Below, in pieces: positions 19,151 through 21,880 of a stretch of 64,000 nucleotides of DNA. Both the position numbers and the translations under genes were made by a program. The notes beneath the pieces are model-generated. The model searched no databases. It saw only the letters and a list, made by a program, of their open reading frames with translations, and was not told the DNA's origin. Numbering within the stretch: position 1 is the stretch's first letter; the number at the start of each line of letters is the position of its first letter. This DNA is from Candidatus Gastranaerophilales bacterium (GTDB taxonomy: Bacteria > Cyanobacteriota > Vampirovibrionia > Gastranaerophilales > Gastranaerophilaceae), in contig CALUWC010000005.1 of NCBI GenBank assembly GCA_944324395.1, forward strand, positions 32,366 through 96,365, in the 5' to 3' direction.

Positions 19151-19483
19151 TTATTGAATTGAGTAAGAGAATGAACTCTTCATATTGGCTTCTATCATTG
19201 AATCGCAGGATTCGATTTCTTCTGCATATCCTTTGATAAGAATTTCCAATTCTTCTTTTCGTTCATCAAGTTTTTCTTCAAGAAGTTTGAGTTTATACTG
19301 ACGCTGTTGAAGTTTCTTTGCAATGGCAGAATCAGCTTCATAATCCGTCCCGACTTGCATCAATTCATTAACAGAATTGGTTGCGGTTCTTTTTGCCTGG
19401 GTTATTAAGTGCAGTTGCCATTCTGCAGTTGATTTCTGCATTTTTAAATAACGTTTTCTGATTATTGCGATAAATAAACCCAT
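19151..19483 (-). CDS. Hypothetical 110-aa helical protein (short paralog of the 350-aa protein at 20828-21880)
   Basis: ORF. N-terminus MGL..R..L..KS..E....I.QA and C-terminus DS....N..S.F match the 350-aa protein. Confidence 0.65.
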   Translation of the reverse strand: MGLFIAIIRKRYLKMQKSTAEWQLHLITQAKRTATNSVNELMQVGTDYEADSAIAKKLQQRQYKLKLLEEKLDERKEELEILIKGYAEEIESCDSMIEANMKSSFSYSIQ

Positions 19484-19494
19484 ATTTTCCGCCT

Positions 19495-19767
19495 TTACCT
19501 TTTTTGATCTAGGTGTGCACCTTTCAAGAAATTATGCTGGCTGTTTTCGGCTATTAACTGTTCCATCTTGTGTAGCTGATGTCTATGATAGTTAAGCCTG
19601 TATTGTGCCATTTTTAATTTCTTTTTAACCGTTAAAAAATCTTTTATTCCTTCTACTACTGAATTTACTATTGTTTGTATAGGATTTTTCCTGATAAAGT
19701 AATTCTTTGTGTAGATTAAGAAATCCATGATTCTTTTCAGGTATAGCTCTAGAGTTTCTCGAAACAT
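19495..19767 (-). CDS. Hypothetical 90-aa protein
   Basis: ORF with GTAAGGA SD. 11-nt gap to the next gene. Preceded by the shared upstream element. Confidence 0.6.
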   Translation of the reverse strand: MFRETLELYLKRIMDFLIYTKNYFIRKNPIQTIVNSVVEGIKDFLTVKKKLKMAQYRLNYHRHQLHKMEQLIAENSQHNFLKGAHLDQKR

Positions 19768-19786
19768 AACGATCCTTACACTTTAG

Positions 19787-19826
19787 ACCTACATATAAAT
19801 AAAAACATTACTTCTTTTAGAATTGT
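19787..19826 (-). promoter_or_regulatory. Shared upstream element, site S6 (weakest copy)
   Basis: Minus strand reads ACAATT-N19-TATTTA-TATGTAGG, in the same register as S1-S5. Confidence 0.5.
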
Positions 19827-19927
19827 TATTTTTTTGATATTTTTGTAATATTTCTTAATATCAGGTCTGTTGGGTTTATCTATACTTTTATATATACGGC
19901 TAAATTTTTGAAAACTTTAACAAATAA

Positions 19928-19959
19928 AAAGATAATGTAAAATTTATTACATTATCTTT
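19928..19959 (-). terminator. Intrinsic terminator after the Gly/Ser-rich gene
   Basis: 13-bp stem AAAGATAATGTAA/TTACATTATCTTT, with a T-run on the minus strand. Confidence 0.7.
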
Positions 19960-19981
19960 CATATTATATAAAAATGTTATA

Positions 19982-20794
19982 TTACAAGTTTTGAATAGCT
20001 TTGCTGTCGCCGTCAATATCTTCTTTGAGCATCTTTTTGGCAACGTCGCCTTGGGTATCAAGCATTTTGCATACAGTTTCTATATTTCTTACTTTAGTAG
20101 AAAGAATTACGTCGGCATTATTTGTAATATTCCCGCTGACATTTTGGTATGCGGCCAAAGCTGCAGAAGTTGTACCTTGCATAAGATTTCCGAGAACAGT
20201 AGTTCCTGCTCCGTAAACACCAAGGTAAGGTGATATTGCAGTTAATATTCCACCAAAACCGGATATACAGCTAGCGAAAGGCATTACTATATTTGATGCA
20301 ATTTTACCCAGTCCGCTTCCTGTTCCTATGCCGTATGCTGCAGCACTTGTAATATCTGCCAGACCGCTGACACTTGATGCATAACCTGTTGCACAGCCAT
20401 CAGATCCCCAGCCGTTCAGAATTGAGGAGGCTCCGCCTGTTGCCAATCCGTAAATGGAGCTTATTGAGGCTGCTCCGCTTGGAAATCCTGAATAGTTGTA
20501 TAAAGAATCGACTCCGTAAGATGATCCAGTATTTGTCTTTGAGTAATAAGATGTTCCAGCAATGTTCATAGTTTCGGAACCTCCAAAGACAGTGGCAAAC
20601 GAAGAGGGTGCCAACAGACTGGCAAGATTGTATAACAGACCTCCGGCAGATTCAAAACCGGTTCCGGTACCGCTTCCGGATACTGTTAAATCTCTTAATC
20701 TGTCATAAGTTTCCCACATTTGAGCTTTTGCTGTACTGCTTGCACTGGAAAATCTGTTTGCTATTACTAAATTACTGTCATTCTTATAAGACAT
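19982..20794 (-). CDS. Hypothetical Gly/Ser/Ala-rich protein (270 aa)
   Basis: ORF with AAAGAGG SD, 33 nt after the upstream gene. Small-residue repeats (GIGTGSGLGKIASNIV, GFGGILTAISPYLGVYGAG). No signal peptide. Confidence 0.7.
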   Translation of the reverse strand: MSYKNDSNLVIANRFSSASSTAKAQMWETYDRLRDLTVSGSGTGTGFESAGGLLYNLASLLAPSSFATVFGGSETMNIAGTSYYSKTNTGSSYGVDSLYNYSGFPSGAASISSIYGLATGGASSILNGWGSDGCATGYASSVSGLADITSAAAYGIGTGSGLGKIASNIVMPFASCISGFGGILTAISPYLGVYGAGTTVLGNLMQGTTSAALAAYQNVSGNITNNADVILSTKVRNIETVCKMLDTQGDVAKKMLKEDIDGDSKAIQNL

Positions 20795-20827
20795 CTTAAC
20801 CTCTTTATTATTCTTAGTAACTTATTA

Positions 20828-21880
20828 TTAACTTTCAAATGTTTTGAATGTACTTTCAATATTTTTGGAAATAATCTTGTGTACGGAATCCATTTCTGTT
20901 TGCAGAGCATTTTGTTCCGTATCCAAGGCTTTTAATCGAAGTTCAAGAGTTCTGTCTTCAGTTTGGAGTTGTTCGGTTTTTGCATTTATATCCTGAACTT
21001 CTTTTTCGTATAACTGCTGCTCATAATTATATTGATTCATTGCATCATTATAGGCATTTTCATCCGTTACGCTGGATGCTTCCAGAGCATAAGTTACACT
21101 AGATCCTTCAAGTTGTAAGGATGTTGCTCTTCCGCTGCTGTCATACTCTATTATTCCGTATTTTGAAAGTTCTTTATTTGAAGACTGGTAATCTGCATAA
21201 TAGGAATGAAGAGCTTGAGCCGGATCTTGCAGACACGCTTCCAGTGTGTCGTCTGTAGTACCTGTGCGTGATACAAAATTTACTTTACTATTGTTGTCTG
21301 TCCATAAATATATATTATCTAAAGCACTTTCATCGCCGTTATTCTTATAATTTAACCAGTCTTTAGCTATTTGTGTGTTTGGCCAATCTTGAGCGATTTG
21401 GTCTAATGCAGCACTATAAGTTCCCCAGGAACCATCTTTGCTTGTGTCAGTTCTATCTATGGTATTCAAACAGGTTAATTTTTTTGTTCCAACCAGATAA
21501 TAGCCATCGCCTTCTGTCGGAGTTACGTACTGAACCTGCGGGTTAGTATTGGTATTTCTTATACCAGTGTATTCCGAAACTTTTGATGTGTATGTTATGT
21601 ATGAATTATAATGAAGTCCGTCAGCATCTGTGTAGTCAGCACTTTGAATATCTTCAATTACCTGCTTGGTATCCCCGTTTTGGAAAGTATACTGTACCGT
21701 AGTAAAATCACTTGTACTCGGGGCCGTTGGAACTTCCATTGCGTACAACTCGTTCCATAGTTGAGAACTCTGGTTGGCAAGAGCTGTTCTTGCTTGGTTT
21801 ATTTGTTGTCCTTCGTATTCAACATTTGATTTTCTTGCGGCAAGCGAAATCCATCTTGCTTGAGATGCTGCTAAACCCAT
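20828..21880 (-). CDS. Hypothetical 350-aa protein: conserved terminal helices around a beta-rich variable core
   Basis: ORF with strong AAGGAG SD. N-terminus MGLAASQARWISLAARKSNVEYEGQQINQAR. C-terminal predicted coiled coil. Confidence 0.75.
   Translation of the reverse strand: MGLAASQARWISLAARKSNVEYEGQQINQARTALANQSSQLWNELYAMEVPTAPSTSDFTTVQYTFQNGDTKQVIEDIQSADYTDADGLHYNSYITYTSKVSEYTGIRNTNTNPQVQYVTPTEGDGYYLVGTKKLTCLNTIDRTDTSKDGSWGTYSAALDQIAQDWPNTQIAKDWLNYKNNGDESALDNIYLWTDNNSKVNFVSRTGTTDDTLEACLQDPAQALHSYYADYQSSNKELSKYGIIEYDSSGRATSLQLEGSSVTYALEASSVTDENAYNDAMNQYNYEQQLYEKEVQDINAKTEQLQTEDRTLELRLKALDTEQNALQTEMDSVHKIISKNIESTFKTFES

Follow-up and report, generated by a model that had tools for sequence, protein, structure and literature searches.

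Helical Hairpin Proteins with Exchangeable Inserts in a Gene Module of Melainabacteria: Candidate Subunits of a Sigma-28-Linked Polymer

Introduction

What kind of protein keeps its two ends almost unchanged while its middle is swapped, duplicated or lost, and what might such a protein be made for? This question is raised by a stretch of 64,000 nucleotides, referred to here as the window, from the genome of a Candidatus Gastranaerophilales bacterium (GenBank assembly GCA_944324395.1, contig CALUWC010000005.1, positions 32,366 to 96,365). It carries four neighboring minus-strand genes, whose products are called here p350, p270, p90 and p110. A reading of this DNA made without database searches (the sequence-only reading) had noticed that p350 and p110 share their termini around a variable core, had compared this design with flagellins and hook-associated proteins, and had pointed to flagellar genes nearby. 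The host belongs to the Melainabacteria (class Vampirovibrionia), non-photosynthetic sisters of Cyanobacteria that are common in human and animal guts and about whose cell biology almost nothing is known. In the literature on Melainabacteria or Vampirovibrio that deals with flagellin, cryo-electron tomography or transcriptomics, we found these proteins nowhere described.

In this work, we describe p350 and p110 as members of a protein family, designated family A, on which a gene module is built; the family appears to be new and the module specific to Melainabacteria. Our preferred reading, to which we give a probability of roughly one in three, is that family A supplies the subunits of a sigma-28-linked polymer, in which a helical core displays the insert, and that these subunits are possibly exported by the flagellar type III apparatus.

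Family A, Helical Hairpins with an Empty or a Filled Loop

The gene of p350 is located at 20828-21880 (minus strand) and encodes a family A member with an inserted domain. The gene of p110, the fourth of the tetrad, lies at 19151-19483 on the same strand. The gapless N-terminal similarity of the two proteins noted in the sequence-only reading was reproduced by BLASTP (13/41 identities, pairwise E=0.013). The resemblance that it had also seen between the C-termini is not significant when these ends alone are compared pairwise (E=1.1), and it emerges at the profile level, where hhalign aligned p350 with a group of 109-aa coreless proteins from Vampirovibrionales over the C-terminal 49 columns (probability 98.6%, E 6e-16). 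The p110 family matches the same group end to end over 106 columns (98.6%, E 7e-16), so that the similarity of the termini is significant at the family level. A direct profile alignment of p350 with p110 covers the C-terminal part only (E 5e-4). When all 2,076 open reading frames (ORFs) of 60 aa or more from the fetched loci were searched with a hidden Markov model of 22 p110 orthologues, about 70 p350-type ORFs outranked the first unrelated one (E 0.018), most of them with E values from 6e-7 to 2e-3, while a few distant paralogues scored below it. This ranking and the profile matches through the bridging 109-aa group identify p110 as a divergent, coreless paralogue of p350.

The family signature reads MGLAASQ(A/S)R...LTARKSD.E...Q.NQ.R at the N-terminus and ...LE..LK..DTQ...VQTE.DAVKKVIDKNIE..FKTF at the C-terminus. 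Membership was defined by two motifs aligned in register, an N-terminal MG(L/M)xxSQxR..L..(R/K)..(L/V)E and a C-terminal ..IxKNIxxxF(K/S)(T/Y)F, and both p350 and p110 carry them.

In the AlphaFold2 (AF2) model of p350, which has a mean predicted local distance difference test score (pLDDT) of 87, a helix at residues 2-47 and another at 274-349 enclose a mixed beta/alpha core at 56-272. On the minus strand of the window, the N-helix (residues 1-47) corresponds to nucleotides 21880-21740, the variable core (residues 48-273) to 21739-21062, and the C-helix (residues 274-350) to 21061-20831. The proposal that the long protein is the short one with a beta-rich insertion of about 200 aa is borne out by this model and by the relatives, which form a size series of loop inserts. 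Family A is thus an antiparallel two-helix hairpin with almost invariant helices, whose loop is either empty, as in the forms of 95-113 aa, or filled by a fast-diverging modular domain, as in p350 and its paralogues of up to 1,074 aa. Both p110 and every Vampirovibrionales orthologue are of the empty-loop kind, in which DP(D/E)SP is a frequent loop sequence. Every insert found within the span of 95 to 1,074 aa is located at the hairpin loop. The same is true of the length differences among the forms in metagenome loci (95, 100, 109, 110, 113, 117, 119, 132, 134, 137, 145, 151 and 153 aa).

The two parts of the protein diverge at different rates. Among 47 p350 orthologues, pairwise identity is 89% over residues 1-50 and 89% over residues 290-350, and 59% in the core. 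For the 109-aa form, the identity across Vampirovibrionales is 76-98%. A hypervariable center between conserved termini is a hallmark of flagellins, and such a contrast in constraint is typical of polymer cores. Composition points in a similar direction. The termini are rich in Q, A, L and N, lack Pro and contain hardly any Cys, His or Trp, and the core is rich in T, D, S, Y and N with 0.5% Cys, which seems to resemble the flagellar axial proteins.

A profile search of 1.84 billion cluster representatives returned at least 2,405 family A clusters at 50% identity (E<=1e-3), all of them of melainabacterial origin. The best 150 of these 2,405 clusters are 307-1,074 aa long, and most of them align as one N-terminal and one C-terminal stretch. 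Paralogues can be aligned only at both ends, their cores being swapped, duplicated or absent. Inserts grow as a module of some 58-90 aa is duplicated in tandem (proteins P0112 and P0155); the insert of P0155 (861 aa) consists of about eight tandem repeats of some 58 aa related to p350 residues 150-205. Repeats-in-toxin (RTX) sequences are typical of extracellular proteins, and the insert of P0193 (1,074 aa) contains three consecutive RTX-like nonapeptides (AGSGNDHIV, YLGGGNYID and AGGGNDTIG) together with a weak calpain-like match. Apart from the latter, no Pfam domain was found in the inserts of the ten largest family A members.

A Conserved Gene Module with Two Partner Proteins

The p350 gene is followed, after a gap of 33 nt, by the gene of the Gly/Ser/Ala-rich partner p270 (19982-20794, minus strand), and p90, a small helical protein, is encoded by the third gene of a conserved triad (19495-19767, minus strand). 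The gap and the link between p350 and the Gly/Ser-rich protein had both been proposed from the sequence, and the link proved stronger than first claimed, since the pair is kept across two orders. A family A gene followed by p270- and p90-family genes occurs in the window, in 66/80 genome loci, in the Vampirovibrionales loci L081-L083 and in metagenome loci, the exceptions being stand-alone paralogues. In Vampirovibrionales (record MW495066 and two other genomes), a family A protein of 109-146 aa, a p270-family protein of 295-336 aa and a p90-family protein of 80-96 aa are encoded in this order among unrelated housekeeping genes. The pairing of family A with p270 thus holds in two melainabacterial orders. 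The p90 gene is in many lineages followed by another family A gene without a core (p110), and the full tetrad is also present where its first gene has no core or a small insert (L101-L103, L108).

The cluster was also sought in related genomes, where its order is widely conserved. Across 80 GTDB loci, it reads lpxK-mlaD, p350-p270-p90-p110, p232, and then purH-like-cda-(amy)-fliE-fliF-x-fliH-flhA. Within the loci of p350 orthologues (L001-L057), p270 is 79-96% identical and thereby better conserved than p350 (60-86%); in deeper Gastranaerophilales loci, the identity of p270 is 54-72%. Several genomes carry extra p350 paralogues of about 37-45% identity, which stand alone beside housekeeping genes.

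None of the 2,805 homologues of p350 bears a functional name, and the few that are named are "hypothetical protein" entries of gut Gastranaerophilales or of cyanobacterial metagenome-assembled genomes (MAGs). The 109-aa family gave 425 matches and the p270 family 862, none of the latter with a Pfam domain; in both families, the named matches come from Vampirovibrio or Melainabacteria, except for a few oddly labelled MAG fragments.

In p270, about 100 N-terminal and about 130 C-terminal residues are conserved, and the Gly-rich middle between them varies in length. Its AF2 model is of low confidence (pLDDT 49) and places helices at residues 8-38, 48-61, 165-190 and 197-269. The hydrophobicity of segment 165-190 is moderate (Kyte-Doolittle maximum 1.82) and borderline for a transmembrane helix. 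A profile search of the PDB gave sub-threshold matches (E ~0.1) to the BDLP paddle and, in the hydrophobic part, to PomA (E 0.11). As Pfam yielded no match at E<=1, we do not regard p270 as a MotA/ExbB/TolQ protein. A 17-column motif in its C-helix, KNLET..K.LDAQQ, resembles K.LELQLRRVDTQQQ of family A, but not significantly (E 0.008, probability 5%). With nothing comparable in p90, neither partner could be recognized as a hidden family A member. The p90 protein is helical; it carries an (R/K)NP motif, and its C-terminal helix is conserved. Scans of Pfam, NCBIfam and PHROGs, in which a diverse set of p90 proteins was included, revealed no relative of known function. No component of the module has a signal peptide.

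Two Transcription Units and Their Promoters

All four ORFs of the proposed minus-strand cluster are present, but they form two transcription units, p350-p270 and p90-p110, rather than one, because a terminator-like hairpin follows p270 and a separate promoter precedes p90. The hairpin, which resembles an intrinsic terminator and ends the p350-p270 unit, is located with its U-rich tract at 19921-19959 (minus strand; 14-bp stem at 19959-19928). Its fold has an energy of -14.4 kcal/mol (z -5.2), and 0/200 shuffled sequences were equally stable.

The consensus of sigma-28/SigD promoters across phyla is TAAA-N15-GCCGATAA. It is fitted by the putative sigma-28 (FliA/SigD)-type promoter of p90-p110 at 19893-19919 (minus strand), in which TAAAGTTT (19919-19912) and GCCGTATA (19900-19893) are separated by an 11-nt spacer. 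This motif is kept at the same place upstream of p90 in orthologous loci. In many lineages, the motif of the module takes the form TAAAG-N3-N11/12-GCCGATAA, and of its 42 intergenic matches in 1.4 Mb of loci, 35 stand before p90 and 4 before family A genes. The first gene of the module, too, has a sigma-28-type promoter, at a distance of 45-70 nt, in lineages whose fraction of guanine and cytosine ranges from 0.29 to 0.53. One example is TTAAAGAAT-N11-GCCGATAA in L098 and L101, with a nearly identical sequence in L102; further cases are L086, L089-L091, L103-L110 and a V. chlorellavorus-like record. The motif likewise precedes the p350 paralogues of L068-L080 and two giant surface-type proteins of about 2,800 aa (L080, 11030-11926; L071, 1150-1480). 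One of these giants has an FHA/TPS-like N-terminus and the other adjoins a family A paralogue; in the L080 intergenic region, a repeat of about 170 nt is present in three tandem copies.

The promoter taken as ancestral for the module matches the sigma-28 consensus. Judged by motif, this consensus stands before coreless orthologues, paralogues and p90, while p350 has a sigma-70-like promoter, predicted at 21932-21959 (minus strand) with TTGACT (21959-21954), a 16-nt spacer and TATAAA (21937-21932). In about 60 loci, p350 orthologues are preceded by conserved TTGACT and -10 boxes, and we read the arrangement as a probable promoter switch in the p350 lineage, with a sigma-70-like promoter before the first gene and a sigma-28-type promoter before p90-p110. 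A strong Shine-Dalgarno sequence, GAAGGAG, lies at 21894-21888 (minus strand), and together with the strong promoter it would fit an abundant structural protein. Further upstream, a conserved box, CTGTAAAGTTTTTAAC (22061-22076, minus strand), resembles either a sigma-28 -35 box or the operator-like motif described below, and has no conserved GCCGATAA partner.

The sequence-only reading had recognized a shared upstream element with its own copy before p90-p110. An element is indeed there, but it resolves into the sigma-28-type promoter and a separate operator-like motif, ATATTAAGAAATATTAC, in the p90 leader (19845-19861, minus strand). The general form of the latter, T(T/G)TAA(A/C)GAAAT(G/A)TTAC, has 104 matches in 2.03 Mb, 47 of them before p90 and 7 before family A genes. 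It occurs beside the promoters of family A, p90 and p232 genes (L068-L080, L090, L098-L117), either upstream of the -35 box or in the leader, and its half-sites resemble GTAAC/GTTAC. Substitutions in the two halves covary (TATTAAGAAATATTA versus TGTAAAGAAATGTTA), which suggests a dedicated DNA-binding regulator. A further copy of the motif is found at 971-987 (minus strand) of the window.

The leaders of the p350 paralogues in L068-L080 are conserved and contain two GGA motifs (CAAGGAAAC ... CGAAAGGAAAC), the second of which is the Shine-Dalgarno sequence. Such a pair recalls the CsrA sites on flagellin mRNAs; neither csrA nor fliW was found in the fetched DNA. Two sigma factor genes were also encountered. 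The one next to p90 in L008 was considered as a FliA-like factor and proved to encode a group-1/2 sigma, and L049 has a true FliA-like sigma, 38% identical to that of E. coli.

A Possible Polymer and the Rival Explanations

A flagellar connection appears to exist at the regulatory level, by way of the sigma-28-type promoters. According to the preferred reading, the terminal helices would pack into the core of a homo-oligomer or polymer, with the insert displayed on the surface as in flagellin, and the subunits would be made with the late motility (sigma-28) regulon. Because they lack a signal peptide, they are proposed to be exported independently of Sec, and the flagellar type III apparatus would be the most plausible route. 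The p270 protein, with its terminal helices, flexible Gly-rich middle and hydrophobic segment, may co-assemble as a junction or an anchor. For p90, the role of a chaperone or regulator is envisaged, and for p110 that of a minor or adaptor subunit. Also in favor of the polymer reading are the top Foldseek matches of p350, which are all flagellar axial proteins, though weak, and the reports that V. chlorellavorus and the ancestor of the two orders are flagellate (PMC4451040, PMC4040986). In a bolder version, which we consider quite unlikely, family A, p270 and p90 would build an unrecognized extracellular appendage or contact organelle. It would have converged on the flagellin design, be exported through a flagellar or flagellum-derived type III gate, and be kept under sigma-70 control in non-motile gut lineages that retain only a remnant of the flagellar genes (here fliE-fliF-x-fliH-flhA), with the hypervariable inserts, enzyme-like and RTX-like modules among them, as a host- or prey-facing surface.

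Several observations weigh against the polymer reading. In Pfam, NCBIfam, PDB profile and Foldseek searches, no axial or filament protein proved similar in sequence or convincingly similar in fold, and the p270 model is of low confidence. A canonical late flagellar gene that could serve as a positive control for the sigma-28 motif was sought in the available DNA, and none was found: tblastn with reference sequences revealed no gene of flagellin, MotA, CsrA, FliW or FliS, either in the window or in some 2 Mb of fetched loci, and MW495066 yielded only pomA and fliM. The leader of pomA (motA) has no clear sigma-28 site. Outside Gastranaerophilales, no locus (Vampirovibrionales, 80 metagenome loci) has flagellar genes within 5-10 kb of the module. 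Canonical flagellins have been reported in gut Melainabacteria (PMC3787301) and a full flagellar gene set in V. chlorellavorus (PMC4451040), so there is no structural gap to fill. Complete flagellar sets are reported for only 3/9 Gastranaerophilales genomes, Zag_111 being among those without a functional flagellum (PMC4040986). Nevertheless, Zag_111 (L004) has kept p350 and p270, at 82% and 91% identity, with the sigma-70-like promoter. It has no p90 or p110 within 10 kb, and the same holds for at least 8 other full-length loci. A complete flagellum is therefore not needed for the first operon to work, and the sigma-28-driven p90-p110 operon seems, as judged at the locus, to go missing together with the flagellar block. 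The function of family A is a proposal, in which polymer, export and surface location are predictions.

The most credible of the rivals, which we still consider rather unlikely, is an intracellular or membrane-associated scaffold. The hairpin would polymerize, or coat the inner membrane face like PspA/Vipp1/ESCRT-III, DivIVA or crescentin, with p270 as an anchor and the insert recruiting partners, and sigma-28 control would indicate a role in a motile or attack-phase cell form, for example, in pole organization or cell shape. Retention in a non-flagellate genome under a housekeeping-type promoter (PMC4040986) agrees with this idea, as do the housekeeping neighbors in every order examined, the extreme conservation of the 109-aa protein and the lack of a signal peptide in every component. 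The hydrophobic Gly-rich segment of p270 between amphipathic helices and the sub-threshold matches to the membrane-inserted parts of BDLP and PomA also speak for it, but this segment is only borderline as a transmembrane helix. Hypervariable, duplicating and swapping inserts in several paralogues per genome would, moreover, be unusual for a cytoskeletal protein, and the Cys-poor composition rich in T, S, N and D and the RTX-like repeats of one member also count against a scaffold. No PspA or other scaffold family was matched; PspA_IM30 (PF04012) was absent, and profile searches of the PDB gave no solved relative of PspA/Vipp1/ESCRT-III.

It is improbable that family A is a diverged true flagellar part, be it an additional flagellin, a cap or hook-associated protein, or a component of the filament surface. 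The sigma-28-type promoters, the two GGA motifs of the paralogue leaders and the location 5.7 kb from fliE-flhA all favor such an origin. The proximity to the fliE-flhA block (claimed as about 6 kb) was confirmed for the window and is syntenic in many Gastranaerophilales, but it is not conserved outside this order. The top Foldseek matches of the p350 model were all flagellar axial proteins, namely FliD and flagellins. However, these matches are weak and none reached E<=1e-3. The best, FliD 9gnz_U, had E 1.2e-2, a probability of 0.80, template modeling (TM) scores of 0.23/0.18 and a root-mean-square deviation of 21.6, and flagellins had E 1.7e-2 or worse with TM scores of 0.11-0.18. By sequence, p350 is no flagellin, as already noted from the letters alone, since neither Flagellin_N (PF00669) nor Flagellin_C (PF00700) was matched in Pfam and NCBIfam at E<=1, and no flagellin appeared in the PDB profile search at E<=10. 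FliD_N/FliD_C and Flg_bb_rod/Flg_bbr_C were likewise absent, which speaks against FliD, FlgK and FlgL. By fold, a single N-helix and a single C-helix do not make the D0/D1 arrangement, with its two N-helices and beta-hairpin and its two C-helices. Finally, canonical flagellins and complete sets are already reported (PMC3787301, PMC4451040), and the module is kept where the flagellum is reported lost (PMC4040986) and never adjoins flagellar genes outside one order. Of the filament design suggested in the sequence-only reading, the conserved termini and the variable, swapped cores have held; the single helix per terminus and the weak Foldseek matches count against it, and no filament is demonstrated.

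Less probable still is an analogue of injectisome substrates, with the coreless hairpin as a needle-like, p350 as a tip-like and p270 as a hydrophobic translocator protein, p90 as their chaperone, and a flagellum-derived gate serving contact with prey or host. The hairpin of 95-113 aa with its frequent D-P-(D/E)-S-P loop and the joining of a hydrophobic segment with a coiled coil in p270 would suit these roles. The sizes and order of the module genes also resemble operons of the espA-espD-espB type. Partial flagellar gene sets occur in many Gastranaerophilales (PMC4040986), and that of the window consists of fliE-fliF-(331 aa)-fliH-flhA. Against this explanation, hhalign comparisons with the needle proteins PrgI, MxiH and YscF gave probabilities of 0.3-0.5%, the PDB profile searches returned no needle, tip or translocator, and no injectisome-specific gene was detected in the loci.

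A phage or mobile-element structural module, which the sequence-only reading had named as a possible identity, or a chance likeness of unrelated coiled coils, is effectively refuted: although coiled coils are often spuriously similar and one tblastn match lies in MW495066.1 (L081, L085), filed as the jumbo phage "Microcystis phage MaAM05/PhiMa05", no PHROG was matched, the genes keep fixed chromosomal positions with vertical-looking divergence, the homology statistics are strong with both termini in register, and the viral status of this record is openly disputed (PMC13623530). MW495066 carries secDF, acpS, smc, scpAB, murJ, pomA, an ompA-like gene and fliM besides the family A triad, and its 109-aa and 314-aa proteins belong to 90%-identity clusters with V. 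chlorellavorus or Vampirovibrio-like proteins. These cellular genes and Vampirovibrio-like proteins would seem to bear on the dispute over its viral nature. The probability left over belongs to functions that we have not thought of.

Genomic Surroundings of the Module

The convergent protein that adjoins the cluster, p232, is acidic and Gln-rich as first described, and its ORF was confirmed at 18439-19137 (plus strand). Its membership in the module is tentative, and its gene is syntenic in Gastranaerophilales only. A sigma-70-like promoter is predicted for it at 18378-18406, and the operator-like motif TAAAGACATGTTAC lies at 18314-18327, 125 nt before p232 (both on the plus strand). An Rfam scan of the region gave no match.

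On the p350 side, the module is flanked by mlaD and lpxK. The MlaD/MCE-domain protein (22131-23501, plus strand) has a C-terminal coiled-coil extension of about 330 aa, and its gene is divergent from p350, an arrangement kept in nearly all Gastranaerophilales loci and not in Vampirovibrionales. On the p110 side, a truncated purH-like gene, genes of a cytidine deaminase, an amylase and an acyltransferase, and then the flagellar block follow. For the purH-like ORF of 311 aa (17348-18283, minus strand), the match to PurH is confined to the C-terminal AICAR-transformylase part (profile positions ~208-509 of 510). The ORF lacks the IMP cyclohydrolase domain of the N-terminus and is syntenic with the module in Gastranaerophilales.

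The flagellar block (7574-13465, minus strand), about 5.7 kb from the module, comprises only fliE, fliF, an ORF of 331 aa, fliH and flhA. No flgB or flgC was found upstream of fliE, where an acyltransferase gene lies on the other strand, and no fliI or fliJ after flhA, where a convergent radical-SAM gene is located; further flagellar genes were not seen at 1-7500 or 25200-26500 of the window. This genome may thus be one of those with a partial flagellar gene set. The 331-aa ORF (10402-11397, minus strand), which is 59-90% identical in related loci, occupies the place expected for fliG between fliF and fliH. It had no match to FliG or any other Pfam family at E<=1e-3 and no sequence relative in the PDB at E<=1.

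Significance

The module is one signature gene set of Melainabacteria and an orphan one: the p270 and 109-aa proteins are each among the best-conserved in their loci, and neither they nor the other family A proteins are annotated. The invariant termini are good markers of Melainabacteria in metagenomes and metaproteomes. If the hairpin does polymerize, the flagellin design of an invariant helical core with an exchangeable displayed domain would have been invented independently, and the natural series from 95 to 1,074 aa could be used to study how scaffolds tolerate insertions. If the flagellar export gate is used, this would account for the partial flagellar sets retained by non-motile gut lineages, and would point to variable surface proteins that are probably seen by the host immune system.

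Comparison with Known Systems

When p350, p270, p90, p110 and p232 were compared with Pfam, NCBIfam and PHROGs, only chance-level coiled-coil matches were obtained. Nothing significant was found in PDB profile searches with p350, p110, p270 and the 109-aa group, in which HA2, CSM1, BDLP and PomA reflected coiled-coil or hydrophobic composition, and the module proteins could thus not be assigned to any known family in these databases. The known systems therefore serve here as comparisons in design.

With PspA/Vipp1/ESCRT-III, family A shares a long-helix hairpin, a possible membrane-associated partner, very high conservation and the lack of a signal peptide. Unlike those proteins, it has variable inserts, and its coreless form is too short for the ESCRT-III fold. 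The needle and filament proteins of type III secretion systems (SctF/PrgI/MxiH, EspA) are similar in that a small helical hairpin with a Pro-containing turn is encoded beside a hydrophobic coiled-coil protein and small helical proteins. SctF is a hairpin of about 80 aa with a P-x-x-P turn, and the coreless forms of family A have 95-113 aa with DP(D/E)SP loops, which is a resemblance only; in contrast to needle systems, the module has no hhalign or PDB match to them and no injectisome genes nearby. FliD and FlgK/FlgL, products of late flagellar genes, also combine terminal helices with inserted beta domains, but these families have neither coreless hairpins nor expanding sets of paralogues.

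The closest likeness in design is to flagellin (FliC/Hag), in which near-invariant terminal helices also enclose a hypervariable, size-variable, domain-swapping middle. Several paralogues per genome, the absence of a signal peptide, few or no Cys residues, a composition rich in Q, A, N, S and T, and promoters of sigma-28 type, as judged by motif, are further common traits. Unlike flagellin, family A has no sequence similarity to it and one helix per terminus in place of the four-helix D0/D1 arrangement; coreless forms of 95-113 aa are the rule in one of its orders, it is accompanied by a Gly-rich partner, and it is kept where flagella are reported lost. Campylobacter FlaC, a short coreless relative of the long flagellins, parallels p110 in its relation to p350, and flagellinolysins, which carry an enzyme in the variable region, parallel the P0193 insert with its weak calpain-like match. 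FlaC and flagellinolysins, unlike family A, are true flagellin homologues. Family A is flagellin-like in its design while standing apart from the flagellin, hook-associated protein, needle and PspA families.

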